The position numbers were made by a program, and so were the translations under genes. The notes under the pieces are model-generated. The model was not told the origin of the DNA and made no database searches. It saw nothing but the letters and a program-made list of their open reading frames with translations. A stretch of 44,406 bases of DNA from a virus (Duplodnaviria; Heunggongvirae; Uroviricota; Caudoviricetes). The DNA lies in the IMG/VR virus record IMGVR_UViG_3300042564_000253; one strand, 5' to 3'. Shown here piece by piece: positions 2,254-28,625 of the stretch (within the stretch, counting starts at the first letter, position 1; each line of letters begins with the position of its first letter).

Positions 2254-2256
2254 TAA

Positions 2257-12197: not shown

Positions 12198-12220
12198 AGC
12201 AAAATGTTTTTTATTTTAAA

Positions 12221-12228
12221 CAAAAGTA
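12221..12228 (-). promoter_or_regulatory. -7 element TACTTTTG for the leftward gene
   Basis: TAnnTTTG 23 nt upstream of ATG 12197. Confidence 0.5.
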
Positions 12229-12229
12229 G

Positions 12230-12237
12230 TACATTTG
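12230..12237 (+). promoter_or_regulatory. -7 element TACATTTG for the modification operon
   Basis: TAnnTTTG 17 nt upstream of ATG 12255; back-to-back with the minus-strand element. Confidence 0.55.
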
Positions 12238-12254
12238 TAGGAAATATCAAAGAC

Positions 12255-12692
12255 ATGATTATAGTTATTTTTGGGCAGCCTGGAGCTGGTAAAACTACAC
12301 TAGCTCAAAGACTCATATTAGAGAGATTTTATCACATAGATGGAGACAAGTTAAGAGACATTTTCAAGAACAAAGATTACAGTAAGGAGGGTAGGATTAA
12401 GAATCTAAATAGGGCTAGTGACATTGCTCACTACATAGCCTTTACAGAAGGTCGTGACGTAGTCTTATCACTAGTCTATCCTTATGAGGAAGCTAGAGAG
12501 TACTTACGTAAGTTAACTAAAGGAGTTAGATGGATCTATCTAATCTATGAAGATGATAGAAATAGAGATCAATTTAAAGTGGAAGACTTTGAACTTCCAC
12601 ATATGGACAATGTAGATTTAATCATCAATACTTCCAACACTTCAATAGAAGAAAGTATAAACAAAATCAAAAATGTATGCAGAATATTCTAG
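12255..12692 (+). CDS. cysC: adenylyl-sulfate (APS) kinase-like protein
   Basis: GQPGAGKTT P-loop, IDGDKLR, DYSKEGRIKNLNRA, SLVYPYEEAR; start moved to ATG 12255. Confidence 0.8.
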   Translation: MIIVIFGQPGAGKTTLAQRLILERFYHIDGDKLRDIFKNKDYSKEGRIKNLNRASDIAHYIAFTEGRDVVLSLVYPYEEAREYLRKLTKGVRWIYLIYEDDRNRDQFKVEDFELPHMDNVDLIINTSNTSIEESINKIKNVCRIF

Positions 12693-13069
12693 CAAAGGGT
12701 AATGGTAAAGGAAATGGTTGGGCTATGTTTATAGGTAGATGGCAACCATGGCATGAAGGACATAGATGGTTAATTGATCAACAGTTAAACCAGGGAAAGA
12801 AGGTGTGTATAGCTATTAGAGATATGGAAACTGATGAAAAGAATCCATACTCAGCAATTCAAGTGATGATGAATATCACCAATGAATTAATAGGTCTTGT
12901 AGAAGAGGGTATGATAAGAATCATGATTGTTCCTGATATAGAAAGTATTAATTTTGGACGTGGTGTTGGCTATGATATCATTGAACATATTCCTCCTGCA
13001 GAAATACATGACATCTCAGCAACAAAAATTAGAGAACAAATGAATAAGAATGAAGAAGATATTTTATAA
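12677..13069 (+). CDS. HxGH nucleotidyltransferase (cytidylyltransferase-like; possible minimal sulfate adenylyltransferase)
   Basis: FIGRWQPWHEGH and ISATKIR motifs; overlaps both the cysC-like and sulfotransferase genes. Confidence 0.75.
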   Translation: MQNILAKGNGKGNGWAMFIGRWQPWHEGHRWLIDQQLNQGKKVCIAIRDMETDEKNPYSAIQVMMNITNELIGLVEEGMIRIMIVPDIESINFGRGVGYDIIEHIPPAEIHDISATKIREQMNKNEEDIL

Positions 13070-13868
13070 CGCATCACTGCCTAGATCTGGGTCTACATTA
13101 TTGCAAAATGTGCTAGCACAAAACCCAGACATATATGCCACTCCTACTAGTGGTCTATCTACATTACTGCAATCAGCAAAAGAAACATACAGTAAGCGAG
13201 CTGAGTTTGCTGCATTAGATACAGCTCTTATGAAGAAAGCCTTCTTAGGATTTTTAAGAGGAGGTATGGAAGGGTTTACTAACAATCTTTCAGACAAGAA
13301 GTATATCTTAGATAAAAGTTTTAACTGGGGAGGTGATTACTATCTATTGAAATATATGTTCAATGGAGAGTCACCAAAGATCATCATGATGGTAAGAGAC
13401 TTAAGAGAAAGTGTAGCATCTATGGAATCACAGTATAGATTCTCTCCACAACATGTCTATCCTAAAATTGATTTAGAAACTACACAACTTACTACATTAG
13501 AGAAGAGACTTAAGTATTGGGCTGTAAGTAATCCATTTGGATTAACACTAGACTTTATCAAAGAGATATTTACAGCTAAGATAGAGAATGAGATATTCTT
13601 TATTAAGTTTGAGGAATTCTGTGCATTCCCTGAACCAGTGATGAAAGGACTGTATAACTATTTAGAGATACCATACTTTGCTCATGACTTTGATAACATT
13701 GAACAGGTGACTGATCAGAACGATGGGTTCTATATATTCAATCATAAGATAAGAAAACAACTAAGACCTGTTGAACCTAAGGCTTTAGATATACTTGGAC
13801 CAGAAGCATGTAAATGGGTGTATACAAATTACGAATGGTTCTTTAAAAAGTTTAATTATGCCTTATAG
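13050..13868 (+). CDS. PAPS-dependent sulfotransferase
   Basis: 5'-PSB loop SLPRSGSTLL; 3'-PB motif MVRDLRESVAS; IKFEEF. Confidence 0.9.
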   Translation: MKKIFYNASLPRSGSTLLQNVLAQNPDIYATPTSGLSTLLQSAKETYSKRAEFAALDTALMKKAFLGFLRGGMEGFTNNLSDKKYILDKSFNWGGDYYLLKYMFNGESPKIIMMVRDLRESVASMESQYRFSPQHVYPKIDLETTQLTTLEKRLKYWAVSNPFGLTLDFIKEIFTAKIENEIFFIKFEEFCAFPEPVMKGLYNYLEIPYFAHDFDNIEQVTDQNDGFYIFNHKIRKQLRPVEPKALDILGPEACKWVYTNYEWFFKKFNYAL

Positions 13869-14355
13869 CTCAACAGCATTCAAAGAAGAAGTAAAGCGTC
13901 ACATATTAGCTAACCTACCTCTTCATACTAAAATATTAGATGTAGGTCCTGGTGCAGGTACATATGGATCAATGTTACGTGACTACTATAATATAGATGG
14001 ATTAGAAATCCATGAGCCTTATATAGATAAGTTTAACCTTAGAAGTATATACAACAAAGTAATGGTGGGAAACATTCTAGCATTTGACGTCTCTCCATAT
14101 GATTATATTATATTAGGAGATGTACTAGAGCACATACCAAAGTATGAAGCTATCAATCTGGTAGCTAAGATTAACTCTGCAGATAAGAAGTGTTTAATAG
14201 CTGTACCTTATATGTATGAGCAAGGAGAGTATGATGGTAATGTACATGAGATACATCATCAACCAGACTTAACAAATGAAATATTCCTAGAGAGATATCC
14301 AAGCATGCACTTGTTATATAAAGATGCAGGATATGGATACTATATAAACTATTAA
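13858..14355 (+). CDS. class I SAM-dependent methyltransferase
   Basis: ILDVGPGAGTYG, DGLEI, YDYIILGDVLEH; start moved to ATG 13858. Confidence 0.85.
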   Translation: MPYSSTAFKEEVKRHILANLPLHTKILDVGPGAGTYGSMLRDYYNIDGLEIHEPYIDKFNLRSIYNKVMVGNILAFDVSPYDYIILGDVLEHIPKYEAINLVAKINSADKKCLIAVPYMYEQGEYDGNVHEIHHQPDLTNEIFLERYPSMHLLYKDAGYGYYINY

Positions 14356-14356
14356 T

Positions 14357-15007
14357 ATGAACAACATAGAAACTTTATATCCCCATGGTGGATACATATT
14401 TAAACTACACTTTGATTTTGATTGGAAAACATTATATCCAATATGCAAAGAGTTAGTTAACTCAGAACTTGCATACTCTCCACTAGTAAAGAATGGTAAG
14501 AGTTCACATATGAACAAGCTATCTCCTCATAAGATAGAAGAATTTAGGCCATATTATATGTGGTTGTCTTCTTTAATTAAAGAAATCTTTACAAAGAATT
14601 GTCAATACTCTGATGATGTAATGGAGTATTTTGTTGCTAACAGTTGGGTGAATGTGCAGGGATATGGTGGTCACACTACAGTGCACAATCATGCTAATGT
14701 TTTTATGGTAGCTGCTGCTTATCTAAACCTACCTAAAGATGGTGGGTTCTTTGAATGCGTAGATCCATTAGAGTATAACAAAAGTAATCAGTATCATGAT
14801 GATCCTAATTGGATGTGGAAAGAAGTGCCTGCAATAACTGGTGATGTGTTAGTGTTTCCTGGTTGGTTAAAACATAGAACACAAGTGAACAATGCTCACT
14901 CTAAATTACTTATTGATGACAATGGTGTAGGACGTGAGGAAAACTCATCTGAAGATAGATGGGTTTTGACTACAAACTTTACACAAGAATTTAAAGAAAT
15001 AGTATAA
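14357..15007 (+). CDS. 2OG-Fe(II) oxygenase, TIGR02466-like
   Basis: SWVN, HNH metal motif, AAYL, VFPGWLKH, RWVLTTN. Confidence 0.85.
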   Translation: MNNIETLYPHGGYIFKLHFDFDWKTLYPICKELVNSELAYSPLVKNGKSSHMNKLSPHKIEEFRPYYMWLSSLIKEIFTKNCQYSDDVMEYFVANSWVNVQGYGGHTTVHNHANVFMVAAAYLNLPKDGGFFECVDPLEYNKSNQYHDDPNWMWKEVPAITGDVLVFPGWLKHRTQVNNAHSKLLIDDNGVGREENSSEDRWVLTTNFTQEFKEIV

Positions 15008-15960
15008 TGAAACCAGTCTGTTTAAACTTAGAAGAATGTAATGGGTTAGGTGACCTTATATGTGCCACCCCCACCATCAAGAAACTACATGATGCATACC
15101 AAAGAAAGATCATTGTCATCTCTAAGATGCCTGAGCTATTCAAGATGAATCCTTATGTAGAGAAGAGCTATAAAGCTAGTTCAATGGATATGGATTATTT
15201 CAAAGCTAATTATATAATGCACAACTCTTTCTATCTAGTAGGTAAGAAAGATGAGCGTGGTATAGAGATGAAGCATAATATGATGGACATCAGACAGTTC
15301 CATGCTATACACCTAGGCTTTATGCTTGGACAAGATGAACTAGAATGTTATTACAAACCTACAGAAGAAGATGCTTGTACAGATGGATTTAGTGATAAAA
15401 GTACATCTGGTACCAAAAGATATATAGTGATACATCCTGTTAACAGCTGGCCTAATAGAACATGGTCACAAGAGAACTGGTTAAACTTATCTAAAGAATT
15501 GATTAAATGGGGATATAATGTAGTGGCTGTAGGAAAAGATAGCTCTGAGACAGGGTTCTTTAATGTACAGAAACCTGTACATGAGATGGACAATAACATT
15601 ACTAATCTAATGAATAAGACATCCATATCTCAAACGTGGTATCTGATTAATAATGCTGCAGCTGTTATCACCATGGACTCAGGTATTCTTCATCTAGCAG
15701 GTACAACAGAAACACCTATAATTGAATTAGGATCTCCTATCAACCCTGAGTTTCGTAGACCATATAGAAAGACTAGTAAGCATATATACGTAAGAGGAGG
15801 CTGTGGATTACACTGCAGTTCTAACATGAAGTATGCTCTTGAGTATTGGCCTACGATAGACTACGTACAACCATTGATTGGATGTCTAGAGAAGAAAGAA
15901 ACATTTGAATGTCATCCATCTGTAGAACAAGTAATTCATGCAATTAACAATAACATATGA
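15007..15960 (+). CDS. GT9-family (heptosyltransferase-like) glycosyltransferase with C-terminal Cys cluster
   Basis: GLGDLICATP, IVIHP...RTWSQENW, ITMDSGILHLAG; C..HC...C...EC. Confidence 0.85.
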   Translation: MKPVCLNLEECNGLGDLICATPTIKKLHDAYQRKIIVISKMPELFKMNPYVEKSYKASSMDMDYFKANYIMHNSFYLVGKKDERGIEMKHNMMDIRQFHAIHLGFMLGQDELECYYKPTEEDACTDGFSDKSTSGTKRYIVIHPVNSWPNRTWSQENWLNLSKELIKWGYNVVAVGKDSSETGFFNVQKPVHEMDNNITNLMNKTSISQTWYLINNAAAVITMDSGILHLAGTTETPIIELGSPINPEFRRPYRKTSKHIYVRGGCGLHCSSNMKYALEYWPTIDYVQPLIGCLEKKETFECHPSVEQVIHAINNNI

Positions 15961-18620
15961 AAAAACTATTAATCATCACTCCTCACCTATCAACAGGAGG
16001 AGCACCACAGGTAACTGTAAATAAAGTAGAATTGTTACGAGAACACTTTGAAATCAAGGTGGTAGAGTATGCATTCTTAGCATGGCAGTTTGTTGTACAA
16101 AGAAATAGAATCATTGACATGCTTACAGAAGGAGTTAACTTCCATTCATTAGGGGATAATAAGTACGATGAACTGTTGCAAATTCTGCAAGACTTCAAAC
16201 CAGATGTAATCTCTATGGAAGAATTCCCTGAGATGTTTATGAATGAAGAATGTGCTGACTATATATATGATGCAGAGAGGCCATGGAAGGTTGTAGAAAC
16301 TACACATGATAGTTCATTCAATCCTAAAAACAAATACTATCTACCTGATAAGTTTGTATTTGTTAGCTCATATAACTCGTTCCAATACATTACATTAAAT
16401 GTACCTACAGAGGTAATTGAATATCCTATTGATAAGAAGGTTAGAAATAAAGTAGAGAGACAGCAACAACTTGGCTTAGATCCTGAGTACAAACACTTTG
16501 TAACTGTAGGGTTGTTTACTCCTAGAAAGAACCAAGCATATGCATTCCAACTAGCAGAAAGACTTAAGAACCACAAGGTTAAGTTTCACTTCCTAGGTAA
16601 CCAAGCTGGTAACTTTGCTAACTATTGGCAACCATTGATGGCTAACAAACCAGACAACTGTGTTGTGTGGGGAGAGCGTAATGATGTAAGTGAATTCTTA
16701 GAAGCATGTGATGTGTTTTTGTTCCCATCTAAAGGAGACAGAGGTAATAAGGAGTTAAATCCTATTGCTATTAAGGAAGCCATGGAATATGATGACTTGA
16801 TCAAAGTGATGTACAATCTAGACGTATACTGTAACAAGTATAATGATGAGGAGAATATGGTTTATTTAACTGGAGATCTTGGTAGTGATGCTACCAATAT
16901 CATCAAAAAATTAAACCTAGATGTATTAGATGAAGAGTGTATCATCTTGGGCACCTATCCAAATATTAAGGACAGAGTGCAATGGACCAAGGATACCATA
17001 CTGTCTCTAAAGCCATTAGGTAGAAAGATTATACTAGTATCTCACTATCCTGTAGACCAGGACATACAACGTATGGTGGATTACTATATCTATGATAAAC
17101 ACAACCCCTTGACTCACCACAGTTACTACACTAGGTTTTATCATGATACACCAGAGTACTTTGCTGAGATCAATATCAATGGATTGAAGGATAGCAATCA
17201 GTCCCTTACAGTGCTAGTAAACATGTTCAATGCAGCTAAGGTTGCTAAAGAGCTTGGATTCAAGAGATTCTTCTATACTACGTATGATGTTATGTTAGAT
17301 CCTAGAGACATACCTGCAGTGAATGAAGCATTTAGAACAGATAAAAAGTTATATGCTGCTACACTACCTACACCACAGGGTAAAGGTATTCAGACCAATG
17401 GTATTATGTTTGACACAGACTTCTTCTTAAAAGAGTTTGATGATGTGCGTACAGCAGAAGAATGGAACGCTGTATGTAAGAAAAGAAAATGTGAGAACTA
17501 TCTAGAAGACTATTTGTCCAAGGTTATCTTTAGCTTCAATCCTAATGATATTCAAGTGGTTACAACTGACAAGGATACTATGTTGATACACAGTGGGTTA
17601 GGTGTAGCATCTAATAGTGAGTATTATTCTATCATCCCTGTTGTTGGAAAACCAAACACTTATGTGTTCTATTTCTTTACATATAACAGAGACTTTAGAA
17701 ACATTTATATATCTATTGAAGATTACATGTGGAAAAGAATCATACCAGCTAAGAACCATGAACTTCTTTATCAGTTTGAATTCAAAGGAGAACCTATTAA
17801 TGTAAGAATGGATTTCTATGATGGTGATATAACTTATAAGGTGGAAGAGTTTATAATAAACAAAGACACATTACCTCTATACAAAAATACAGGTAAGTTT
17901 CAATGGAAGAAGAAGGATAGACCTAAGATTAAATTAGTTCATATACAAACCACACTAAATGATGAAAGAGAAAGAGCAAGTAGAGACTCCCTTATCAGCG
18001 TTGTCAACCATGGATGGGAATATAAGTTACATCTTAACCAGCCCTATAAGTCATTACCACCATCATATAACTGTCTCAGACCCAGTTGTGTTTCAATGGA
18101 ACTCTTCAATGAGGAGCAAGTTCGACAGTATGGCACTGCACTTACCCCAGCACATTATGGATGCTATCAAGCATTCAAAGATGCCATCTTAAGTGAATTC
18201 AATAACTGTGACTACTTGATAGTGTGTGAAGGTGATTGTATTATTGAGACAGACATACACTTTTTCGTACAAAAAGTTGAGGAATGTGCACACTTATTGG
18301 GACCAAACAACATAGAGTTTATGTCCTTTGGAGATAAAGATACATTAGAACATGGATGGCCTCAGAGTCCTGTCATCAAAGATGTGAACGATGATATGTA
18401 TGTCACTAATCATCTTATAGGTTTACAATGTATCATGTTCCCTGCACATGTATCTCCATGGTTAAAAGAAACTTTAAGAATGCACAAATGGGATGCTGCT
18501 GATATGTATTTTAATAATATCTTTGCAGGAGACAAAATGGGTATAGTTAAGAAAAGACTTACCACACAGGCAGATGGATTTTCTTTAATAGACAACATGC
18601 AAAAAACATTTAGAAAATGA
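15957..18620 (+). CDS. three-domain glycosyltransferase (GT4, uncharacterised GT-A-like, GT25-like)
   Basis: HLSTGGA, GLFTPRKNQ, DVFLFPS..ELNPIAIKEA (GT4); middle IILVSHYP..YYIYD domain; C-terminal AHYGCYQAF..LIVCEGD. Confidence 0.8.
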   Translation: MKKLLIITPHLSTGGAPQVTVNKVELLREHFEIKVVEYAFLAWQFVVQRNRIIDMLTEGVNFHSLGDNKYDELLQILQDFKPDVISMEEFPEMFMNEECADYIYDAERPWKVVETTHDSSFNPKNKYYLPDKFVFVSSYNSFQYITLNVPTEVIEYPIDKKVRNKVERQQQLGLDPEYKHFVTVGLFTPRKNQAYAFQLAERLKNHKVKFHFLGNQAGNFANYWQPLMANKPDNCVVWGERNDVSEFLEACDVFLFPSKGDRGNKELNPIAIKEAMEYDDLIKVMYNLDVYCNKYNDEENMVYLTGDLGSDATNIIKKLNLDVLDEECIILGTYPNIKDRVQWTKDTILSLKPLGRKIILVSHYPVDQDIQRMVDYYIYDKHNPLTHHSYYTRFYHDTPEYFAEININGLKDSNQSLTVLVNMFNAAKVAKELGFKRFFYTTYDVMLDPRDIPAVNEAFRTDKKLYAATLPTPQGKGIQTNGIMFDTDFFLKEFDDVRTAEEWNAVCKKRKCENYLEDYLSKVIFSFNPNDIQVVTTDKDTMLIHSGLGVASNSEYYSIIPVVGKPNTYVFYFFTYNRDFRNIYISIEDYMWKRIIPAKNHELLYQFEFKGEPINVRMDFYDGDITYKVEEFIINKDTLPLYKNTGKFQWKKKDRPKIKLVHIQTTLNDERERASRDSLISVVNHGWEYKLHLNQPYKSLPPSYNCLRPSCVSMELFNEEQVRQYGTALTPAHYGCYQAFKDAILSEFNNCDYLIVCEGDCIIETDIHFFVQKVEECAHLLGPNNIEFMSFGDKDTLEHGWPQSPVIKDVNDDMYVTNHLIGLQCIMFPAHVSPWLKETLRMHKWDAADMYFNNIFAGDKMGIVKKRLTTQADGFSLIDNMQKTFRK

Positions 18621-19630
18621 GAATAGTACACGTAGCTACAGGACTAATAACCATACCACCAAATGGATGGGGTGCTGTAGAAAGACTTATATGGGAATAC
18701 AAACAAGGACTTGAGAAGCTTGGTGATGTTGTAGACATCAGATATATGAATGAGCTAGAGAGATGGCCTGATACTATTGTACATGCACATCTAGCCAACC
18801 AGGCTTTGTATTGTAGAGACAAAGGTATACCTTATGTATACTCTCTACATGATCATCATACAGAATGGTATGGCAAAGATAGCTGGGTATATAAGCAAAA
18901 CCTAGAGGCTATGAAACATAGTATTATATCTTTTACACATGCTGAGTATCTGATAGACTATTTCAGTGAGACTGATAAGTTGTTCTATCTAAGACATGGA
19001 GCCAACACAGAATTCTTCACACCAGAATATAGAATGGGTCCACATAAACTATTGATGATAGCCAACAATGGACTAGCAGGTGACTCAGGGTTTGATAGAA
19101 AAGGATTTAGATATGGTATAGAAGCAGCTAGAGAACTAGATCTTCCTATCACCATTGCTGGTCATCCTAATAATGAGAAGTTCTTTGATATACATATAGA
19201 GTTAATGAACTATAAAAAGTTAACTTTAAAGTTAACAAATCCTACAGATGAAGAAGTCAGAGAATTGTATCAAGATCATAGCATCTTCTTACATCCATCT
19301 ATGCTAGAAGCAGGACATCCTAACCTTACATTATGTGAAGCAGCTAGCTCTTGTATACCTATTGTAGGAACCTACAGAGGATCTAAACACTTTCCTGGTA
19401 TGTGGGTGTTACCAAACATCAGTACAGAGAGTGTAATGCTTGGCATTACAGAGACAATCAAGACATACGAGCATCGTGTAAAAGAAATGCAAGATGCACG
19501 TGACTATCATAGCTGGGACAATGTAGCTAAGACATTACATAAATACTATGAGAATATTTCTAAGATAACTGAAGGATATGACTCAGAGAAGACAAAACAA
19601 TTATACATCAATTTATACAATAATTTATGA
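18617..19630 (+). CDS. GT4-family glycosyltransferase
   Basis: PPNGWGAVE, RKGFRYGIEAA, IFLHPSMLEAGHPNLTLCEAA. Confidence 0.9.
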   Translation: MRIVHVATGLITIPPNGWGAVERLIWEYKQGLEKLGDVVDIRYMNELERWPDTIVHAHLANQALYCRDKGIPYVYSLHDHHTEWYGKDSWVYKQNLEAMKHSIISFTHAEYLIDYFSETDKLFYLRHGANTEFFTPEYRMGPHKLLMIANNGLAGDSGFDRKGFRYGIEAARELDLPITIAGHPNNEKFFDIHIELMNYKKLTLKLTNPTDEEVRELYQDHSIFLHPSMLEAGHPNLTLCEAASSCIPIVGTYRGSKHFPGMWVLPNISTESVMLGITETIKTYEHRVKEMQDARDYHSWDNVAKTLHKYYENISKITEGYDSEKTKQLYINLYNNL

Positions 19631-20223
19631 GAGTAGAAATGTTATCAATTGCAGACTTCTACAGTAACGTAGATGAAGTGAGAAACTTTGCAATGCAACA
19701 AGAATTCCTTGGTGAAGAAGCTCACTTCCCAGGTAAGAGAACTAAATCATTTTTAAATGATAGTGTTAAAGAGATAATTCAAAGTACCATGAGACCATTT
19801 GCAGGAGACGTTACGTGGTGGGGAGATCACAACTCTGGAGCATTTCAATACACTACAGCAGCAGACAGATCGTGGATACACTCTGATGGTAATGCTGATT
19901 GGGCAGCTGTATGTTATTTAACTCCTGATGCACCATTGAGTGCAGGTACAGGAATATTTAAACATAAAGCAACTGGTCTTAGAAACTGGATATATAAAGA
20001 TCATTTTACAGAAGAAGATAAATATGGTGTTAAAGACGCACCTCATCGTGGTGCTGATTCTGTTGACTATACCAAGTGGGAGATGGTGGATAGAATAGGT
20101 AATATGTATAATAGACTTATAATATATAGAGGTGATCTATTTCATGTATCTTTGGATTACTTTGGTAGAGATTTACAAACAGGAAGATTGTTTCAAACAT
20201 TCTTTTTTAATACAGAGAAATGA
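19627..20223 (+). CDS. 2OG-Fe(II) oxygenase (DUF6445-like)
   Basis: SWIHSD (HxD), WAAVCYLTPDAP..GT.IF, YNRLIIY.G.LFH, RLFQTFF. Confidence 0.85.
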   Translation: MRVEMLSIADFYSNVDEVRNFAMQQEFLGEEAHFPGKRTKSFLNDSVKEIIQSTMRPFAGDVTWWGDHNSGAFQYTTAADRSWIHSDGNADWAAVCYLTPDAPLSAGTGIFKHKATGLRNWIYKDHFTEEDKYGVKDAPHRGADSVDYTKWEMVDRIGNMYNRLIIYRGDLFHVSLDYFGRDLQTGRLFQTFFFNTEK

Positions 20224-21317
20224 TAATATATAATGTACACCATGTTAATGGTTTGTTCTTTGAGCTACTAGACGATGGTGGCAAGAACAGAGAATATGAT
20301 ATACAGTTTGTAGATAGGAAGGGTAAGGTGGAAGGTATGCTTACAGATCAACATGTAACTATCTATGAAACAAAACTAAAGGTAGGTGCATGGGCTAGAC
20401 TTAGTAGAAAGTATCTATCTGACATAGCTATATTTGTTAAATATGAAGGACGTGTAGTTAAGCAAATAAACTTATTAGATGAGTTTAAAGATAAGAGAGT
20501 GTTTATTGTATTTGAGTCTAAGAGTCTTGGAGATAGCATAGCTTGGATACCATACTGTTTAGAGTTTCAGGAAGTTTATAAATGCAAAGTAATTGTATCT
20601 ACATTCAAGAATGATTTGTTTGAGAGTGTATATCCTGAACTAGAGTTTGCAGGCAGAGGAACGACAGTTGAGAATCTCAAAGCAATGGTTGAACTAGGTT
20701 GGTTTTGGGATAAGGAAAAAGAACCTACACATCCTGCTACCATTCCTTTACAACAAGCAGCAAGTAATGCATTAGCTTTACCATTTAGAGAGATCTCACC
20801 TAGAATAGCTTTCACACCAGGAGAAAGACCTGTAGTAAATGAATACATATGTATATCAACTAGATCTACAGCACAATGTAAACACTGGTACTACTGGCCA
20901 GAGCTAATTCAAAAACTAAAAAGCTGGGGATACAGAGTGTTTGAGATGTCTCAAGAAGCTGATGACTATGGAGCAGAGACATTAGAAGATAAATCATTAC
21001 AGAACGTGATGAACTATCTACATCATGCTGAATTATTTGTAGGATTATCTAGTGGTATCAGCTGGTTGAACTGGGGAATTGGTAAGAAGACAGTGATGAT
21101 TTCTAACTTCACTACACCAGATCATGAGTTCCAATCCAATTGTATACGCATAATTAATAAAGATGTGTGTAATGGCTGTTGGAATAATCCTGTGTTCAAG
21201 TTTAATAAAGGAGATTGGAATTGGTGCCCTGAGCACGAAGATACTCCTAGACACTTTGAGTGTCATAAGTCAATCACTGTAGATACAGTATTACAAACAA
21301 TAAAAGATAATTTATGA
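20220..21317 (+). CDS. TibC/AAH-type autotransporter O-heptosyltransferase homolog
   Basis: SLGDSIAW catalytic-Asp motif; FVGLSSGISWL; VCNGCWN...WCPEH..T.RHFECHKSI four-Cys iron site. Confidence 0.88.
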   Translation: MIIYNVHHVNGLFFELLDDGGKNREYDIQFVDRKGKVEGMLTDQHVTIYETKLKVGAWARLSRKYLSDIAIFVKYEGRVVKQINLLDEFKDKRVFIVFESKSLGDSIAWIPYCLEFQEVYKCKVIVSTFKNDLFESVYPELEFAGRGTTVENLKAMVELGWFWDKEKEPTHPATIPLQQAASNALALPFREISPRIAFTPGERPVVNEYICISTRSTAQCKHWYYWPELIQKLKSWGYRVFEMSQEADDYGAETLEDKSLQNVMNYLHHAELFVGLSSGISWLNWGIGKKTVMISNFTTPDHEFQSNCIRIINKDVCNGCWNNPVFKFNKGDWNWCPEHEDTPRHFECHKSITVDTVLQTIKDNL

Positions 21318-21961
21318 AAGGAGAAGTATTTGGGATATTCCCAACACCAGTTTTGAAATTCAAAATGGATAGAGACTTTACTAAAGAGGAATTAGATTTT
21401 GTAGATCTTTATAAAGATAAAGTTCCTCAACCTCCTTACTTCATACATCTAGGAAACAATGGCACAACTGATAAAAAGATCCTTGAGCATCCAGAGATGG
21501 CTGGTTTAAAGAAGATTGTAGAAGACTGTTTAAATCAATGGTGTATTAATGTTTATGCTCCTCGTAACCCTGAGTCTTTTAAACTAAAGATAACACAATC
21601 TTGGCTAAACTATACAGAGCCAGACGAGCATCATGATAGACACTATCATCCAAATAGTATAGTGAGTGGTGCTATTTATATAGATACTAATCCAGTGAAG
21701 GATCAAATTACATTTAACTCTGGTAAGATGTATGATTACTATATACCATGGATTGCTTTGAATCAATTCAACTCTATGGAATCCACTATTACTTTAACTA
21801 AGAAAGATATAGTTTTATTTCCTTCTAATTTAAATCATTCTGTTCCAAAGAACATAGGATCAAATACAAGGATTAGTTTAGCATTTAATTCTTTCTTTGA
21901 GGGATCTCTTGGTGTAAATAAAGATGAACCAAACTACGTACAATTCAATAGTGTAGAATAA
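21314..21961 (+). CDS. 2OG-Fe(II) oxygenase, TIGR02466-like
   Basis: ITQSWLN, HYHPNSIVSGAIY, LFPSNLNHSV, RISLAFN. Confidence 0.9.
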   Translation: MKGEVFGIFPTPVLKFKMDRDFTKEELDFVDLYKDKVPQPPYFIHLGNNGTTDKKILEHPEMAGLKKIVEDCLNQWCINVYAPRNPESFKLKITQSWLNYTEPDEHHDRHYHPNSIVSGAIYIDTNPVKDQITFNSGKMYDYYIPWIALNQFNSMESTITLTKKDIVLFPSNLNHSVPKNIGSNTRISLAFNSFFEGSLGVNKDEPNYVQFNSVE

Positions 21962-21988
21962 AAAAGGGGCTAATTAAAGCCCCTTTTT
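21961..21988. terminator. bidirectional intrinsic terminator
   Basis: Perfect inverted repeat aaaaaggggct-aattaa-agccccttttt between convergent genes. Confidence 0.9.
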
Positions 21989-21996
21989 AATATATC

Positions 21997-22590
21997 TTAT
22001 TTATAATGTCCTCCTCCCACCCAGAGAACAAATGAACGTCTCACTCCTTTAGTAACAGGTGTCACTCTATGCATCATGTAAGAAGGGAATATAAATACCA
22101 CTCCTTTTCCTCTTGGTGCTTTTTGTATATCTTGACCACCTTTCCAGTATTCAAGATCACCTCCTTCATATTCATCAGGACCTGATAACTGAACTGTAAT
22201 ACTTACCTTTCTTGTAGATAGAGCACCAGGACCAATGTCTTGATGCCATCCATAATGTCCATCATTAGTTGCATGGTATTCTGTATATTGAATGTCATCT
22301 AACACTGAATACAGATCAAAGTTCCAAACATTATCATTGGCTTCTATGATCATAGCCATCATCTTATCATATAACCATCCCCACTCTTTATCTTTTGGAA
22401 TCCATTTAACAGATGAAGATCTTATGCTTTTATCTTGGCAATTCTCTGGACCAGTTCCTGCACTTATAAATGGAATTGTAGCAACATCTTTATATATCTT
22501 ATCTAGTTCTTCATCAGTAAATCCCTTCTCAAAGAAATAATAATTTTGAGTATCTATTAACTTTGGTTCAAATAATACATTGGAATGCAT
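21997..22590 (-). CDS. prolyl-hydroxylase-like (PKHD/P4Hc type) 2OG-Fe(II) oxygenase
   Basis: YGWHQD (HxD), RKVSITVQLS..DEYEGGDL, FPSYMMHRVTPVTKGVRRSFV.W. Confidence 0.9.
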   Translation of the reverse strand: MHSNVLFEPKLIDTQNYYFFEKGFTDEELDKIYKDVATIPFISAGTGPENCQDKSIRSSSVKWIPKDKEWGWLYDKMMAMIIEANDNVWNFDLYSVLDDIQYTEYHATNDGHYGWHQDIGPGALSTRKVSITVQLSGPDEYEGGDLEYWKGGQDIQKAPRGKGVVFIFPSYMMHRVTPVTKGVRRSFVLWVGGGHYK

Positions 22591-22626: not shown

Positions 22627-23934
22627 TTAAATATAAAGTTTTTCTTTTTCTGCTAATTTAGCATCTAGCTCTTGAAGAGCTTTTATCATTACACCTAATG
22701 AAGAGTTAATATCAATTCTATCATGTTTACTTGTAGCTAGTTCTTCTGGAGTATCTTCAGCTATGAAACCTATTCTAGTTGTATCATCCTGTCCATCTAG
22801 TTCATATTTATATGTAACTATCTCTGTACTATCTATTAGATCCATAGCAGATGCTGTAAATGGTTCTATATTAGTCTTAACTTCTTCTGTAGATACAGTG
22901 AAGAAATAAGTAGATCCTATCGAAGCAAATGTATACCATCCAAATCCTTCTCCAAAGAATGTTGGAGTTGAAGGACTTATCATTCCTCTATGACCACCTT
23001 GGTAAAATCTATTTGCAGTATACCATTGACTTGTTGTAATACCTCCTTCAAAAACTGCATTATTACTAGCATTTAATGTTTGGTTATTACTATTTGCAGG
23101 ACCTTGAGGTCCTTGGGGTCCTTGAGGTCCTTGGGGTCCTTGTGCTCCTGGTGCTCCTGTTGGTCCTTGTGGACCAGTAGGTCCTTGTACTCCTGTTGGT
23201 CCTTGTCCTCCTGGAGCACCTGTTCCACCATTGACTCCAGATACACCTGATGTACCTGATGATCCTGTAAATCCTTGTAAGCCTTGTGGACCTGTAGGAC
23301 CTGTAGCTCCAGTGGGACCAGTTCCACCATTCACTGCAGATGTACCAGATGATCCATTAGTACCTGATGATCCTGACGTTCCTGAGGAACCAGACGATCC
23401 ACTTCCACCTGATACACCTGTTGTAGCAGAAGAACCATTAGTTCCACTGCTTCCTGATGTACCACTCACTGCAGCTGTTCCTGAAGACCCACTCGTTCCT
23501 GATGTTCCAGTTGTACTAGACAAAGCAGATAGTCCTGCTGTTCCAGATGACCCTGCTACTCCTGTTGAACCAGAATCTGCACTTGTACCAGAGGTTGCAC
23601 TGGTTCCAGATGTAGCAGATGTACCACCACTTCCTGATGTACCTGATGATGCAGATGTACCTGAGGTAGCACTAGTTCCAGCAGTAGCTGAGATACTAGA
23701 TGTACCTGATGTAGCAGCTGTTCCATTGTATCCAGTTAAAGATACAGTCCAGCTATTATATGTTCCAGAACCTTTATAGTCATATGGAGTGATTACTAAT
23801 ACACCAGTACCAGTATCATAAGATACAACTCTACCAATTATATAATTATTAGTATCATGACTTGCTTGGACGAAGTCATTGACAACAAAGGCAAGCCCTG
23901 TACTAACATTAAATGTCATATTAGAGTATGGCAT
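22627..23934 (-). CDS. collagen-like tail fibre with S74 intramolecular chaperone
   Basis: N-terminal beta domain, (G-T/S-S)n then (GPT/GPQ)n, C-terminal STEEVKTNI...IGFIAED...IKALQEL. Confidence 0.9.
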   Translation of the reverse strand: MPYSNMTFNVSTGLAFVVNDFVQASHDTNNYIIGRVVSYDTGTGVLVITPYDYKGSGTYNSWTVSLTGYNGTAATSGTSSISATAGTSATSGTSASSGTSGSGGTSATSGTSATSGTSADSGSTGVAGSSGTAGLSALSSTTGTSGTSGSSGTAAVSGTSGSSGTNGSSATTGVSGGSGSSGSSGTSGSSGTNGSSGTSAVNGGTGPTGATGPTGPQGLQGFTGSSGTSGVSGVNGGTGAPGGQGPTGVQGPTGPQGPTGAPGAQGPQGPQGPQGPQGPANSNNQTLNASNNAVFEGGITTSQWYTANRFYQGGHRGMISPSTPTFFGEGFGWYTFASIGSTYFFTVSTEEVKTNIEPFTASAMDLIDSTEIVTYKYELDGQDDTTRIGFIAEDTPEELATSKHDRIDINSSLGVMIKALQELDAKLAEKEKLYI

Positions 23935-23936
23935 AA

Positions 23937-24305
23937 TTACTGATTGTTATTTTGTAACCAAGTTGGTTTAATTAAAACAACTTTTGGATTTACTTTATCC
24001 TCAAGTCTTTTATCTATCATGTTAGCTTTTATCCAAGCCATGTTTCTTTTCTTTCTATTCTCACTAATCTCAACCCACGATTGAAGTGCTTGAGGAGTCA
24101 ATTGCTCAAAGGGAATAAATTCACCAGGAGCAACATCAGATTTAATAGTAGTGGTAGCAGAGTATCTTTCTTCATGCAGTGTACCTGCAGTATCAACTGC
24201 TGTACCAACTAAAAACCAACTGATCTTTAATACAACTTGAGAATGACCCTCTAATGATGGTGCTACATGCAAATCATCAAGTATGAAATTATAATTAACT
24301 ACCAT
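23937..24305 (-). CDS. small fibre-associated protein (assembly/chaperone-like)
   Basis: VV..I.W...G...FIPFEQLT....SWV pattern often seen beside S74 fibres; sits between two fibre genes. Confidence 0.6.
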   Translation of the reverse strand: MVVNYNFILDDLHVAPSLEGHSQVVLKISWFLVGTAVDTAGTLHEERYSATTTIKSDVAPGEFIPFEQLTPQALQSWVEISENRKKRNMAWIKANMIDKRLEDKVNPKVVLIKPTWLQNNNQ

Positions 24306-24315
24306 ATTTTTTATT

Positions 24316-25608
24316 TTATAAATTATCTATTTTTTTATTCAGTTCTTGTAATGCTTTTAAAGCAACACCTATACTGTTAGTAATATCCATTCTATCATGA
24401 TTTGGACCAGCAAATTCTTCAGCTGTATCATCTGCAATGAATCCTAACTTTACATGATTGTATATTGGATTCTCAAGTTCATATTCAACTATATCTACAG
24501 TGTTTATTAAATCAATTGCACATGCTTGATAAGGTTTAATATCTGTCTTATATATTGATGAAGATGTACCAAAGTAGTTACTAGATCCCACCACACCAGC
24601 AGAAACCCAGTTACCATTACTGTACCAATACGCTCCTTGGTTAGCACTACATGCTGCCTGATTTTGAATTCTCCAACCACCACCTGAATATGCTTCATTT
24701 TGAGTAACTGTGTCACTAAATTGTACAGCATCTCCTTGGTTTAATGATTGGTTATAAATAGTTTGAGGACCTTGTCCACCAGCAGGTCCTTGAGCACCAG
24801 CAGGTCCTGTTGGACCCTGTGCACCTTGGGGACCTGTACCTCCTTGAGGACCAGTTCCACCTGCAGGGCCTTGACCTCCAGTGGGACCCTGAGGTCCTGT
24901 AGGTCCATTTGCACCACTTGCACCAGATGTTCCTCCAGCTCCTTGTGGACCTCTAGCACCCTGAGGTCCTGTTGGACCTGTAACACCTTGAGGACCTGTT
25001 GCTCCATTAGCACCAGAGACACCACTTGATCCACTTGTTGTACTTGCACCAGAAACACCACTTCCACCAGATGAACCTGATGTACCATTAGATCCTGAAG
25101 CACCACTACCACCAGAGGTTCCAGAGCTACCACTACTACCATTTGAACCAGAGGTTCCTGATGTTCTACTATTACCAGAACTACCATTAGCTCCAGCAAC
25201 ACCACTAGATGCAGATGTGCCACTTGTACCAGTTGTACCTGAGGTACCTGTACTACCAGCAGTTCCTGAATCACCAGCTGTTGCAGAACTTCCTGAATCA
25301 CCAGAACTTCCTGATGTACCAGACGAACCATCATTAGCAGATGTACCAGCTGTTCCTTCATTTCCTGAAGACCCACTAGAAGCAGATGTTCCAGAAGATC
25401 CAGGTAAACCAGTTAGATTAACTGTCCATGTACTATATGTACCACTACCTTTCCAAGCAAGAGGAGTTAATGTTATTGAACCTGTTACTTTATCATACGA
25501 TACAACATTGCCTATGACATAGTTATCAGCATCATAGCTAAGTTGTACATTATCACCTGCTTGATAAGCTAGTCCAGTATTTATAGTGAAGGTCATATTA
25601 GCTGGCAT
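24316..25608 (-). CDS. collagen-like tail fibre with S74 chaperone
   Basis: Same architecture; SSSIYKTDI...LGFIADD...LKALQEL. Confidence 0.9.
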
Positions 25609-26926
25609 TGTTCTTCTTATTTTGTAGGTTTACAATTCTTGCGTCAATCTCTTGTATAGCTTTTAAAACAAATGCTAAGGTACAACTTATTTCCATTTGA
25701 TTTTTTGTATCAGTGGATAATTCTTTGGGAGTATTTTCAGCAATAAATCCTATTCTCTTATCCTCATCACATTGTTCTATCTCTAAATTATAAGATACTA
25801 TATCAACTTGTTTTAATAAATCCACTGCAGAAGGAGCATATGATTGGATGTTAGTCTTAGTATCTCTAGTTGATGTAATATAAAAACTAGCAGCACCTAA
25901 TGATGCAGGGGTATACCAACCTGGACCAAAGCCTGTCCAACCTGCACCTTGGTTTGCACCTTGTACAAATTGACGATAGTTATTAAAATATGTTCTATAA
26001 TTTATTGTAGGAGCTGTTGCACCAGCAAAGTTTGTAAAAACCATTGTTGGGCCTGCATTAATATTCAAGTTTTGATTATAAGAAGCAGATGTACCTGTTG
26101 GGCCTTGAGCACCTGTTGGTCCTTGACCACCTGCACCACCTTGAGGACCTTGAGCTCCAAGAGGACCTGTTGCTCCCTGAGGACCTTGTCCACCTGCTGG
26201 ACCTTGTGGTCCTGTTGGACCTGTGGCACCTGATGATCCAGATGTTCCTTGTGGACCTCTAACACCTGTAATCCCACCTGGACCTGTTGCTCCCTGAGGA
26301 CCTGTTGGTCCTTGTGGACCTGTTGCTCCATTTGTTCCAGAAGAACCTGAAACTCTACCAGCACCAGCAGCACCACTAGACCCTGAAGTTCCTGATGAAC
26401 CACTTGTGCCTGATCCACCTGATGTACCTGTGGATGCAGAACTACCACTAGATCCAGATGTACCTGTGGTTCCTGATGAACCATCTGTTCCAGAACTACC
26501 TATTACACCAGAGGTACCAGAGCTAGCTGAGGTACCTGCACTTCCACTAGAATTACTTTCTGCAGAGGTTCCACTTGTAGCAGAACTTCCTGAACTGCCA
26601 TCTGTTCCAGATGAACCAGTGGTTCCACTAGACCCACTAGAAGCACTAGTTCCACTAGATGCACTTGTGCCTGCTGTACCTGTTGTTCCAGAGGAACCAG
26701 ACGTACTAGAACTGCCATTATATCCTGTAAGAGTTGCTGTCCAGCTACTAAATGTACCTGATCCAACAGACTCATAAGGAGTAACAACTAAATCACCAGT
26801 GGAAGGATTGTAAGATACAACCCTACCAGTGATGTAGTTATTCCCATCATGAGCCACTTTGACAAAGTCATTAGTATTGAACTCTTTGTTCAGGGAAATA
26901 TTAAAAGTTAAATTACTGTAAGGCAT
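25598..26926 (-). CDS. collagen-like tail fibre with S74 chaperone
   Basis: Same architecture; STRDTKTNI...IGFIAEN...LKAIQEI. Confidence 0.9.
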
Positions 26927-26935
26927 ATTTATTTA

Positions 26936-28603
26936 TTAAGCAGGAGGTAATGTTTCTGTTGTTCCACTTGTTCCTGAGTATATTGTTGTTTCACCTGATG
27001 TTGCTGCAGTTCCAGAGGAAGCACTTGTACCTGCTGAGGCACTTGTACCACTTGTTCCTGTTGTTCCACTAGATCCTGATGATGCACTTGTTCCTGAAGA
27101 AGCACTTGTTCCAGAGCTTCCATCAGTTCCTGATGTACCACTAGATCCAGATGTACCACTAGTTCCAGAAGAACCATTTGTACCTGATGTAGCATCTTGT
27201 CCACTTGTACCAGCAGATGCTGATGTACCAGCAGTACCAGATGATCCACTTAATCCTACAAAGTTAAAATAGAATTCTGTTAAGTTAGCAGGATCACTAC
27301 CACTTGCTGCAATTTGTACAACATCAAAGTTTTCAAATCCACTTACCAATGGTGTAGTGGCTGTAATCTTTAAGAATTTATAATTAGATTTATCAGTAAC
27401 GTTGGTAAGTCTAATGATAGATCCTGTTTGTAATGAGTCTAAATATGTAGATAGGTTAATATTTGGATCGTATGCAGTGTTATTAATTGCAATTGATGTA
27501 GTGCTACCTCCCCAAGATGCAGAGTCTAATGTAAAATTAGTTGATCCAGGGTTGATTGTTGTATCTTGTGTTGTATCATTGAATCTCCATATAGCTAAGT
27601 TACCATCAATACCAGCCAATCCACTTGTACCACTAGATGCAGAAGTTCCACTAGAACCATTAGTTCCACTTGTGCCACTAGTTCCACTAGTACCAGAAGA
27701 TGCACTCGTACCACTAGATCCACCAGTACCTGATGTTCCACTAGATCCATCAGTACCTGCAGTGGCAGATGATCCACTAGAGCCTGAAGTACCTGAGGTA
27801 CCATCACCTCCTGCAGCACCTCCTAAGTTAACTTCCCATACAGTATATGTACCACTACCTGAGGTAGCTGTGACATTAACAGACATTGCACCTGTAGCAG
27901 GATTGTAAGAAAGAAGATTACCACCCATAGCATTACTTGGATCATAAGCAATAACTATAGCTTGTCCTACAGTGTACGCAAGTCCTATAGAAACAGTAAA
28001 ATTCTGTGTACCTGTACCTATTGTTAATGAAGTAGCAGAAGTTGTTTTATACAAGTCTCCAGAGTTACCTGAAGTACCAGCTGTTCCTGCTGTGCCTGAA
28101 CTTCCATCAGTGCCTGCTGTTCCAGAGGTTCCAGAAGAACCATCTGTACCAGACGTTCCACTTGAAGCAGAGGTACCACTAGAGCCATCAGTACCAGTGG
28201 TACCTGACGTGCCACTAGAGCCATCTGTTCCTGTTGTACCACTTGATCCACTTGATCCACTGGTACCATTTGTACCTGAGGTTCCAGTTGTACCAGAAGA
28301 TCCATTAGAACCATCTGTTCCTGAGCTACCATCAGTACCACTAGAACCATTGGTTCCACTAGAACCATCAGTACCAGACGTACCACTTGATCCTGGAATA
28401 CCTGAACCAATTACAGTCCAAGTGTTATATGTACCACTACCAACATAGTTGGTTGGTTCAAATGTTAAACTTCCTGTAATTGAATCATATATAACCACTT
28501 GACCATATAAGAAATTATTCTCATCATTAATCACTTGGATGTACTGACCAAGAACAAAGTTCAAATTAGGTTGTACTGTTATTGTAATATTAGCGTAAGG
28601 CAT
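26936..28603 (-). CDS. fibre protein: beta domains separated by three (G-T/S-S/D)n tracts
   Basis: Two copies of the shared beta domain, one larger beta-rich domain, no S74. Confidence 0.85.
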   Translation of the reverse strand: MPYANITITVQPNLNFVLGQYIQVINDENNFLYGQVVIYDSITGSLTFEPTNYVGSGTYNTWTVIGSGIPGSSGTSGTDGSSGTNGSSGTDGSSGTDGSNGSSGTTGTSGTNGTSGSSGSSGTTGTDGSSGTSGTTGTDGSSGTSASSGTSGTDGSSGTSGTAGTDGSSGTAGTAGTSGNSGDLYKTTSATSLTIGTGTQNFTVSIGLAYTVGQAIVIAYDPSNAMGGNLLSYNPATGAMSVNVTATSGSGTYTVWEVNLGGAAGGDGTSGTSGSSGSSATAGTDGSSGTSGTGGSSGTSASSGTSGTSGTSGTNGSSGTSASSGTSGLAGIDGNLAIWRFNDTTQDTTINPGSTNFTLDSASWGGSTTSIAINNTAYDPNINLSTYLDSLQTGSIIRLTNVTDKSNYKFLKITATTPLVSGFENFDVVQIAASGSDPANLTEFYFNFVGLSGSSGTAGTSASAGTSGQDATSGTNGSSGTSGTSGSSGTSGTDGSSGTSASSGTSASSGSSGTTGTSGTSASAGTSASSGTAATSGETTIYSGTSGTTETLPPA

Positions 28604-28625
28604 TTATATTTATTTTATACGTTTA

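Follow-up and report, generated by a model that had tools for sequence, protein, structure and literature searches.

A TibC-like O-glycosyltransferase of a crAss-like phage, probably directed at the collagen-like tail fibres encoded beside it

The window, i.e., the whole stretch of 44,406 nucleotides that was analysed, contains an open reading frame at 20220-21317 (+ strand), whose 365-residue product P0001 was originally predicted to be an iron-binding heptosyltransferase of the TibC/AAH type. This raises the question of what such an enzyme would glycosylate in a phage, since TibC and Aah have, to our knowledge, been described only in connection with virulence, as glycosylating enzymes of autotransporter adhesins. 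The large ORFs of the window contain neither autotransporter nor AIDA domains, in agreement with the prediction that the usual target is lacking. A giant ORF matches the virion RNA polymerases of crAss001 and phi14:2, which identifies the phage as crAss-like, so that the predicted Bacteroidota host can fairly be assumed. The P0001 gene lies within an 11-gene modification operon, is coupled to both flanking genes by ATGA overlaps, and is arranged with its neighbours and the fibre genes as follows.

7566..8423, −: sixth fibre-like protein; contains a (GTS)n tract
12204..13868, +: APS-kinase-like P-loop kinase, 130-aa HxGH-type nucleotidyltransferase and sulfotransferase, a candidate sulfation module
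13795..14355, +: SAM-dependent methyltransferase-like protein
14357..15007, +: 2OG-Fe(II) oxygenase (PF13759)
15007..15960, +: second GT9 enzyme, P0002, 317 aa; no N-terminal barrel; LGD at residues 14-16; CxxxC...C...FECH finger
15957..18620, +: glycosyltransferase, 887 aa; GT4 domain in residues 168-278; its GT25-like C-terminal part is a lead only
18617..19630, +: GT4 glycosyltransferase, 337 aa
19627..20223, +: DUF6445 protein, 198 aa; its gene and the P0001 gene are translationally coupled
20220..21317, +: TibC-like protein O-glycosyltransferase P0001, 365 aa; N-terminal β-barrel, GT-B core with LGD, four-Cys finger, short thumb
21314..21961, +: 2OG-Fe(II) oxygenase (PF13759), final operon gene
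21961..21988: GC-rich hairpin of 11 pairs with A and T runs on its flanks, where operon and fibre block converge
21997..22590, −: prolyl-4-hydroxylase-type 2OG-Fe(II) oxygenase (PF13640); its gene immediately follows the fibre gene 22627-23934, downstream and in the same orientation
22627-23934, 24316-25608, 25598-26926, 26936-28603 and 28626-30359, −: five tail-fibre genes, the proposed acceptors
23937-24305: small ORF within the fibre block (22627..30359, −)

The TIGR04414 profile (hepto_Aah_TibC) gave 240.4 bits for P0001 against a curated cut-off of 200, with the match extending over residues 30-362 of 365, and TibC (4RAP) was matched by sequence at E 1.5e-46. Pfam GT9 scored 22.3 bits (cut-off 22), the WaaC/WaaF-side profile TIGR02193 stayed below its cut-off (18.8 versus 185 bits), and a PHROGs search with P0001 and P0002 assigned no family. 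Functional residues of TibC, as described by Yao et al. 2014 (PMC4358343), were mapped onto P0001. The catalytic D110 corresponds to D105 within S-L-G-D, the β-phosphate contacts T226 and K230 to T217 and K221, the heptose O4 contact W305 to W282, and the Fe ligands C339, C342, C358 and C370 to C317, C320, C336 and C348 (CNGC...WC...FEC). G104, D105, K221 and W282 are invariant in a 74-sequence alignment, and at least 90% of 74-76 sequences share T217 and the four Cys, which indicates that these motifs are family signatures and not chance occurrences. The positions of a four-Cys (1Fe-0S)-type finger are hence all present, with iron binding itself being predicted. P0001 is an intact enzyme of the TibC/Aah type and a true relative of E. 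coli TibC, as had been proposed.

The AF2 model of P0001 (pLDDT 95) was aligned with TibC 4RAP over the whole length (384 alignment columns) at TM 0.83 and E 8e-31, and exhibited the TibC protomer fold composed of an N-terminal β-barrel, an atypical GT-B core and the finger. It reached only TM 0.44-0.52 against WaaC and WaaF, so that the best structural match is TibC and not the LPS-core type whose finding had been named as counting against the prediction. This bears on an alternative in which P0001 would act away from the fibres, on LPS or surface glycans of the host or on host proteins, remodelling the cell surface for superinfection exclusion in the manner of WaaC/WaaF. Phage glycosyltransferases that alter the host serotype exist, P0001 is a member of the GT9 family, and the neighbouring P0002 is nearest by sequence to WaaF. 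The fold and HMM are nevertheless of the protein-directed TibC type, including the N-terminal barrel and the metal finger, both of which contact the protein substrate; the gene is located among the structural (fibre) genes of a virulent-type crAss-like genome; and GTS-repeat partners, described below, are recurrent in bacteria and phages. We consider such a target very improbable.

The P0001 model differs from TibC in the thumb region, which comprises 22 aa instead of 33, i.e., it is 11 residues shorter, and its hairpin is absent (residues 243-259). This β-hairpin builds the dodecamer ring of TibC. A dodecamer of that type is therefore unlikely for P0001, and the processive ring mechanism is not simply transferable to it. 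A two-copy complex prediction scored 0.00, which speaks neither for nor against oligomerisation.

The genomic neighbourhoods of the family were compared for 81 TibC-like loci, comprising 80 bacterial genome loci (one of them lost from the alignment) and two plasmid reference loci. An AIDA-type autotransporter gene adjoins the enzyme gene in 28 loci, all of which encode a thumb of 32-33 aa. A gene for a secreted protein or lipoprotein carrying a (GTS/GSS/GTT)n tract was located within ~1.5 kb in 20 loci by a strict regex and in 6 more by eye, and the thumb is 24-30 aa in all of the GTS-partnered loci. The two kinds of partner were found together in none of the 81 loci (Fisher p 7e-5). A tree constructed by a quick IQ-TREE search with midpoint root split the autotransporter-linked and GTS-linked classes (SH-aLRT 100, branch length 1.0) and placed P0001 on the GTS side. 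No sister-clade locus among the 81 has an AIDA-like neighbour; the bacterial partners there are small secreted (Gly-Thr/Ser-Ser)n proteins. P0001 is hence outside the strict autotransporter heptosyltransferases (BAHT) and is placed in an old sister clade. In Proteobacteria and phages alike, the partner conserved beside the genes of this clade is a (Gly-Ser/Thr-Ser/Thr)n repeat protein. Roughly half of the sampled family tree has such a triplet-repeat partner instead of an autotransporter.

The same type of repeat occurs in the fibres of this phage. Besides long proline-free (Gly-Thr/Ser-Ser/Thr/Asp/Ala)n tracts, these proteins have true GPQ/GPT collagen as well as a chaperone end of the Peptidase_S74 type, and five fibres with sister-clade-type triplets are encoded 1.3-9 kb from the P0001 gene. 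The arrangement of cassette and fibre is repeated in other phages at 33-76% enzyme identity, and the pairing of enzyme and GTS repeat was also observed for the cultured Microcystis phage Mel-JY01 and the megaphage LR756501. In the reverse direction, the enzyme was encoded in 17 of 46 IMG/VR records chosen solely by a (GTS)6 pattern, which do not represent 17 independent events because the viral records are partly interrelated; the comparison rate was 4 of the 50,697 records of a phage collection. A megablast search of the operon against phage records gave no match, and a literature search on phage or collagen-linked O-heptosyltransferases returned nothing relevant. Taken together, the bacterial partners, the triplets of the five fibres and the 17 of 46 viral contigs support fibre Ser/Thr as the acceptor, and the fibres appear to be the best acceptor candidate in the window. 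The predicted use of fibre Ser residues is thus favoured by the genomic pairing, whereas a recent repurposing from autotransporter enzymes is not, as the clade is an old one.

The presence of three or four 2OG-Fe(II) oxygenases adjoining several glycosyltransferases recalls DNA hypermodification, in which both would act on bases and P0001 would be a DNA glycosyltransferase. Virus-encoded glycosyltransferases that hypermodify DNA are known, according to work cited in PMC12619734. The oxygenases of this phage, however, belong to PF13759 and PF13640, i.e., the prolyl-hydroxylase type and not TET/JBP, and the GTS-repeat pairing also occurs in non-phage bacterial loci that show no DNA-modification logic. 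Moreover, we know of no member of the TibC family that acts on DNA. This possibility can hardly be given credence.

The sugar donor was examined through the heptose-pathway genes. None of the operon proteins scanned in the window is a gmh/hld equivalog, as originally stated, and heptose-pathway genes are likewise absent from five related phage genomes with a completeness of 92% or more, so that the donor supply depends on a host which is itself only assumed. Outside the phages, GmhA, HldA-like and HldC-like genes were found in 5 of 5 Bacteroidota bins with cassette contigs, where the phage contigs may have been placed by binning and not by infection. An HldC equivalog scored above the cut-off in 127 of 201 sampled Bacteroidota genomes, with 74 lacking one, and B. 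thetaiotaomicron, used as a control, gave no HldC match at E 1e-30. A literature search on ADP-heptose in Bacteroidetes provided no useful statement. The recommended search for gmh/hld genes was therefore negative in the five related phage genomes and positive in the candidate-host bins, and the premise that a Bacteroidota host would lack the donor finds no support in these bins and genomes. In addition, three huge phages that encode a TibC-like enzyme carry a gmhA or hldA-like gene; by tblastn, their gmhA matched 12 and their hldA-like gene 6 of the 50,697 phage-collection records, and heptose genes are absent from 38 of the 39 other TibC-like-positive viral records. The kinase and nucleotidyltransferase pair at 12204-13069 was considered as a hidden HldE-like route and rejected, as it scored 54 bits for APS kinase and 35 bits for NMN adenylyltransferase, both below cut-off, with no rfaE match.

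A second indication concerning the donor is the residue contacting adenine N1, which is R286 in TibC and V263 in P0001. The R286-to-Ala mutant of TibC loses activity, and the contact was described as weak in a structure of 3.9 Å (PMC4358343). Arg occupies the equivalent position in 26 of the 28 autotransporter-linked enzymes; the phage clade has Val there, and most sister-clade members have Val, Ile, Thr or Met. One GTS-partnered subgroup retains the Arg, indicating that its loss does not track the acceptor class, and the change to Val hence does not cleanly mark a donor switch. A nucleotide sugar other than ADP-heptose, transferred to the same fibre Ser/Thr, would be compatible with the lost Arg, with the heptose genes missing from related phages and other viral records, and with the Bacteroidota genomes that lack an HldC equivalog. 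The retained Arg of that subgroup, the weakness of the contact in TibC, the gmhA, hldA and hldC genes of candidate hosts and the pathway genes of the three huge phages argue against it, as does the conservation of W282, K221, T217 and D105, which vary little or not at all in either clade. The "different donor" originally suggested is accordingly not borne out, for the sugar and phosphate contacts are kept and only the adenine-contact Arg, at a column that varies in the sister clade irrespective of the acceptor, is lost; we judge a donor switch unlikely.

The neighbouring genes provide candidates for further steps. P0002 scored 83 bits with Pfam GT9 and aligned to P0001 at E 1e-4; the alignment showed a corresponding CxxxC...C...FECH set, which is retained in two orthologues, so that the second GT9 enzyme with a similar Cys cluster was correctly recognised; it may plausibly extend or duplicate the step of P0001. 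The 887-aa glycosyltransferase, for which a PDB sequence search gave no match, is the steadiest companion of the TibC-like gene across related cassettes. None of the trio at 12204..13868 is an HldE, HldC or GmhA equivalog. Any of the four or five other glycosyltransferases of the cassette could instead be the initiating enzyme.

Since its sister branch adjoins Gly-Ser/Thr triplet-repeat proteins in bacteria and phages, the enzyme would most likely add a sugar coat to the fibres of its phage. We consider it probable that P0001 is an active O-glycosyltransferase of the thumb-less clade of the TibC superfamily, which would place the first sugar on many Ser/Thr residues of the proline-free (Gly-Thr/Ser-Ser)n fibre tracts. 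This would occur in the cytoplasm during infection, before or during virion assembly, in the same way that TibC and Aah attach heptose to TibA and AIDA-I while these are still in the cytoplasm and not yet exported. The donor would most likely be ADP-heptose made by the host, and P0002, the two GT4 enzymes, the methyltransferase and the sulfotransferase may then extend and decorate the glycan. A more far-reaching version, which we offer tentatively and hold to be on the doubtful side, is that the crAss-like phage builds a proteoglycan-like fibre coat by a self-encoded multi-step pathway. Here, the thumb-less enzyme would heptosylate hundreds of Ser/Thr in the proline-free collagen-like tracts, the finger-bearing WaaF-like GT9 and the GT4 (and possibly GT25-like) enzymes would extend the glycan, the methyltransferase and a phage PAPS/sulfotransferase module would cap it, and the prolyl-hydroxylase-type oxygenases would target the true collagen next to these tracts. 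The same clade would then define an undescribed bacterial glycoprotein class, namely the (GTS)n proteins secreted by Methylococcales, Arenicellales and other bacteria.

The Gly-Ser/Thr triplet partners span environmental bacteria and many phage lineages, including crAss-like phages, megaphages and the cultured Microcystis phage. If fibre glycosylation is confirmed, heavily O-glycosylated tail fibres would be widespread among abundant aquatic phages, a trait that has not been studied so far, with bearing on host recognition, fibre stability and shielding against proteases or grazers. It would also imply a new class of bacterial surface glycoproteins and constitute a natural experiment on how a single glycosyltransferase scaffold recognises two repeat architectures that differ greatly. 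A direct test is within reach, as both Mel-JY01 and its host are cultured and ADP-heptose is produced by E. coli.

Modification of a phage's own virion proteins by its glycosyltransferases was demonstrated experimentally for mycobacteriophages, where, according to Freeman et al. 2023 as cited in PMC12619734, unrelated glycosyltransferase families act on the C-termini of capsid and tail-tube subunits. The present system, deduced from genomics alone, instead pairs a TibC-type enzyme with collagen-like fibre tracts. Its closest counterparts are TibC of ETEC H10407 and Aah (AAH) of DAEC 2787, the bacterial autotransporter heptosyltransferases (BAHT; TIGR04414; PDB 4RAP, 4RB4). They share with P0001 the whole-length fold of β-barrel, GT-B core and metal finger, the LGD Asp, the Thr/Lys β-phosphate contacts, the Trp heptose contact and four equally spaced Cys, as well as a presumed cytoplasmic location and a gene beside a highly repetitive Ser-rich protein destined for the cell exterior. 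P0001 differs in its sister-clade position, the Val replacing the adenine-contact Arg, the thumb without a modelled hairpin, and its encoding by a phage within an 11-gene modification operon; its partner is a (Gly-Ser/Thr-Ser/Thr)n collagen-like tract, whereas that of TibC/Aah is the 19-residue β-helix repeat of an autotransporter. WaaC and WaaF, the LPS heptosyltransferases I and II of GT9 (PDB 2H1H, 1PSW), resemble P0001 in the GT-B core and presumably in an ADP-heptose-type donor site, but they lack both the N-terminal barrel and the metal finger and act on a sugar attached to a lipid; P0002 also differs from them in its TibC-type FECH finger. On the acceptor side, BclA of Bacillus anthracis carries O-linked sugars on the Gly-X-Thr collagen-like repeats of a surface filament, though this bacterial, spore-associated system employs enzymes and sugars other than those of P0001.

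For the ORF at 35490–44399 (>2,969 aa), the only matches are virion RNA polymerases, from crAss001, other Bacteroides crAss-like phages, and Cellulophaga phage phi14:2, and the window is judged from its sequence to be part of a crAss-like phage. An operon of modification genes ends at a strong hairpin, on which oxygenase and fibre genes of the opposite strand converge:

12204–21961, + strand, modification operon of 11 genes
14357–15007 and 21314–21961, + strand, PF13759 oxygenases within the operon
15007–15960, + strand, second GT9 enzyme (P0002), with LGD at residues 14–16 and no N-terminal barrel
20220–21317, + strand, TibC-like enzyme (P0001), an open ORF of 365 aa
21961–21988, strong hairpin at the operon end
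21997–22590, − strand, prolyl-4-hydroxylase-type oxygenase (PF13640), immediately 3′ of the first collagen-like fibre gene
22627–30359, − strand, five tail-fibre genes

The operon encodes, in order, an APS-kinase-like kinase, a small nucleotidyltransferase, a sulfotransferase, a methyltransferase, a 2OG oxygenase, P0002, an 887-aa GT4-containing protein, a second GT4, a DUF6445 protein, P0001, and a further 2OG oxygenase. The P0001 gene shares an ATGA overlap with the DUF6445 gene before it, and its own stop codon runs into the ATG of the gene that follows, so it is an internal, translationally coupled operon member. The fibres contain long proline-free tracts (for example, one of 18 protein letters, not shown) that lead into true GPQ/GPT collagen and a C-terminal Peptidase_S74 chaperone, and Ser plus Thr reach 48% in the longest. 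No autotransporter domain was found among the large ORFs of the window, as the original prediction had it. Hydroxylation of the GPQ/GPT part by the neighbouring oxygenases is an obvious hypothesis; the operon has two PF13759 oxygenases, and relatives carry up to five.

Several other genes were noted. The kinase, nucleotidyltransferase, and sulfotransferase genes (12204–13868, +) overlap serially, and their order is kept in a related 112-kb contig; they may constitute a phage sulfation module. The kinase is an APS-kinase-like P-loop protein (54 bits, under cut-off), and the 130-aa HxGH nucleotidyltransferase best matches NMN adenylyltransferase (35 bits). For residues 330–887 of the 887-aa protein (15957–18620, +), its C-terminal two thirds, no Pfam or PDB sequence match was obtained; a protein-atlas feature search returned viral clusters (score 0.96), some with GT25, the collagen galactosyltransferase family, which serves as a lead only. 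Outside the main operon lie a GT2 glycosyltransferase gene (824–1594, +) and a gene for a 338-aa phrog_4417 protein (6373–7389, −), whose nearest relatives in phages, those of Enterococcus and Lactococcus, sit beside genes for the major tail protein.

P0001 scored 240 bits against TIGR04414 (NCBIfam hepto_Aah_TibC; cut-off 200), barely passed the generic Pfam GT9 threshold, and matched TibC (PDB 4RAP, 4RB4) at E 1.5e-46. In TibC, D110 is the catalytic base, T226 and K230 contact the β-phosphate, W305 contacts heptose O4, and C339, C342, C358, and C370 bind iron (PMC4358343). These correspond in P0001 to D105 (within S-L-G-D), T217 and K221, W282, and C317, C320, C336, and C348, all invariant or at least 90% conserved in a 74-sequence alignment. 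An AlphaFold2 model (mean pLDDT 95, pTM 0.92) was fitted to TibC over its full length, including the N-terminal β-barrel (TM 0.83, E 8e-31), versus TM 0.44–0.52 for WaaC and WaaF, which are therefore not its best structural match. Profile, residue mapping, and model thus bear out the predicted LGD motif and four-Cys set, and P0001 is confirmed, at the level of sequence and model, as a real and intact TibC/Aah-type enzyme. The similar Cys cluster proposed for P0002 was also recovered: this protein, closest by sequence to WaaF (1PSW, E 5e-10), nevertheless shows an equivalent CxxxC...C...FECH set when aligned with P0001, and orthologues at 80% and 67% identity retain it. By likeness to WaaC and WaaF, one may speculate that it adds a second heptose.

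The acceptor was approached through the neighbourhoods of TibC-like genes at 80 loci, drawn from bacterial and archaeal assemblies (one genome per species), plus two plasmid reference loci. By tblastn with AIDA-I and an AIDA-repeat protein from these true Aah reference loci, an autotransporter neighbour was detected at 28 loci. A small ORF with at least six Ser/Thr-rich Gly-X-Y triplets in a run was detected by regular expression at 20 loci, with six more by eye, and the two kinds of neighbour never occurred at one locus (Fisher p 7e-5). The triplet-tract ORFs lie within approximately 1.5 kb of the enzyme gene in bacterial loci (within about 2.5 kb at L007, a phage-cassette locus) and encode a signal peptide or lipobox followed by a tract such as (GTS)50, (GSS)n, or (GTT)40; their hosts include Methylococcales, Arenicellales, Burkholderiales, and Pseudobdellovibrionaceae. 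The two classes are cleanly separated by the length of the thumb (32–33 aa with autotransporters, 24–30 aa with GTS tracts). The maximum-likelihood tree falls into two halves with full support (SH-aLRT 100, branch length 1.0), one holding all autotransporter-linked enzymes and the other all GTS-linked enzymes, multidomain metagenomic forms, and phage enzymes including P0001.

In seven Methylococcales loci (L012, L017, L022, L024, L026, L028, L034), the TibC-like gene adjoins a gene for a small secreted protein of a conserved family (MK.TKHKE.ALLLVGSLA...FAKNGADDG, then (GTS)n, then a globular C-terminal domain), whose members may represent a class of bacterial glycoproteins not yet described. 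Near-identical TibC-like genes, all beside the same GTS-repeat gene, were seen at L035, L036, L037, and L072, in bins classified as Burkholderiales, Oxalobacteraceae, Bradyrhizobium, and Paceibacteria, which points to a mobile element or a phage, if not to mis-binning. Two sister-clade members, from a Nisaea bin (L021) and a Pacearchaeota bin (L030), keep D, K, and W without aligned metal-finger Cys and may represent a finger-less form of the enzyme.

The enzyme–fibre pairing recurs in the 112-kb contig (L002; 76% enzyme identity, gene order unchanged), in remoter cassettes (33–56% identity) located in Bacteroidota bins, and in Microcystis phage Mel-JY01 and megaphage LR756501. In a reverse test, IMG/VR was scanned with a degenerate (GTS)6 DNA pattern, and 17 of 46 records searched, mostly fragments, contained the enzyme at E 1e-10 or better, against 4 of 50,697 records in a phage collection; the viral records are partly related, so that 17/46 is an enrichment and not a count of independent events. 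Together, bacterial neighbours, tree, phage pairing, and reverse test make a fibre acceptor for P0001 well supported by comparative genomics. The original prediction of an enzyme repurposed for fibre Ser residues is thus supported for the acceptor and not for a recent origin from an autotransporter enzyme: by sequence, P0001 belongs to a sister clade that is old and that specialises in collagen-like triplet repeats rich in Ser/Thr. Literature searches returned neither an account of this branch nor one of heptosylation of phage fibres.

At positions 1–3052 of Mel-JY01 (L003, PP395634.1), plus-strand frame 2–3049 consists of repeated blocks (27 protein letters, not shown) and reads as a collagen-like fibre. 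The two minus-strand CDS annotated there (1–651 and 739–2298) give low-complexity repeats of the PVPE type and seem to have been called on the wrong strand. A 1,226-aa 'FkbM methyltransferase', the C-terminal third of which is a TibC-like domain, follows 1.7 kb downstream of the fibre end.

Regarding the donor, gmhA and rfaE domains I and II had no match in five related genomes (CheckV 92–100% complete), consistent with a donor that would not be phage-made. The operon kinase and nucleotidyltransferase were rejected as an HldE-like pair, being APS-kinase-like and NMNAT-like. Three huge phages with the enzyme each carry one heptose-pathway gene: gmhA in LR756504.1 (430182–430640, 251 bits, over cut-off, 27 kb from the TibC-like gene), and an hldA-like kinase gene in LR756501.1 (209213–210175, 306 bits) and in IMG/VR fragment G219 (43710–44648, 319 bits, 21 kb from the TibC-like gene). 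By tblastn, 12 of 50,697 phage records matched the phage gmhA and 6 the hldA-like gene; among 39 other viral records that have the enzyme, none matched gmhA and one matched the hldA-like gene. The original prediction, in which heptose is often missing from Bacteroidota and another donor may serve, agrees with the five related phage genomes but not with the host side: all five Bacteroidota bins with cassette contigs hold GmhA (194–234 bits), a full-length HldA-like kinase (294–331 bits), and HldC (176–192 bits, four over cut-off). Of 201 Bacteroidota genomes sampled evenly, 127 had an HldC equivalog above its curated cut-off; B. thetaiotaomicron was among those without a strong match. The sugar-contact residues are invariant across both clades, and the Arg column varies inside the GTS-linked clade, whose 24-aa-thumb subgroup keeps Arg. 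Host ADP-heptose is therefore rated as the most likely donor, and use of a changed donor by P0001 as a minority possibility.

P0001 differs from TibC and Aah in three respects. The thumb segment has 22 residues in P0001 versus 33 in genuine autotransporter-linked enzymes, and the model has no hairpin at this position, where a β-hairpin of TibC joins dimers into a dodecamer. R286 of TibC, which contacts adenine N1, is replaced by Val. The closest relatives of P0001 below 55% identity are mostly domains within 500–2,000-aa proteins, fused to GT4, GT2, GT25, or FkbM-methyltransferase domains; for this same set of activities the phage has separate genes. P0001 is predicted to work like TibC/Aah, yet it departs from four defining features of autotransporter heptosyltransferases, namely the thumb, the Arg contact, the autotransporter partner, and the clade placement.
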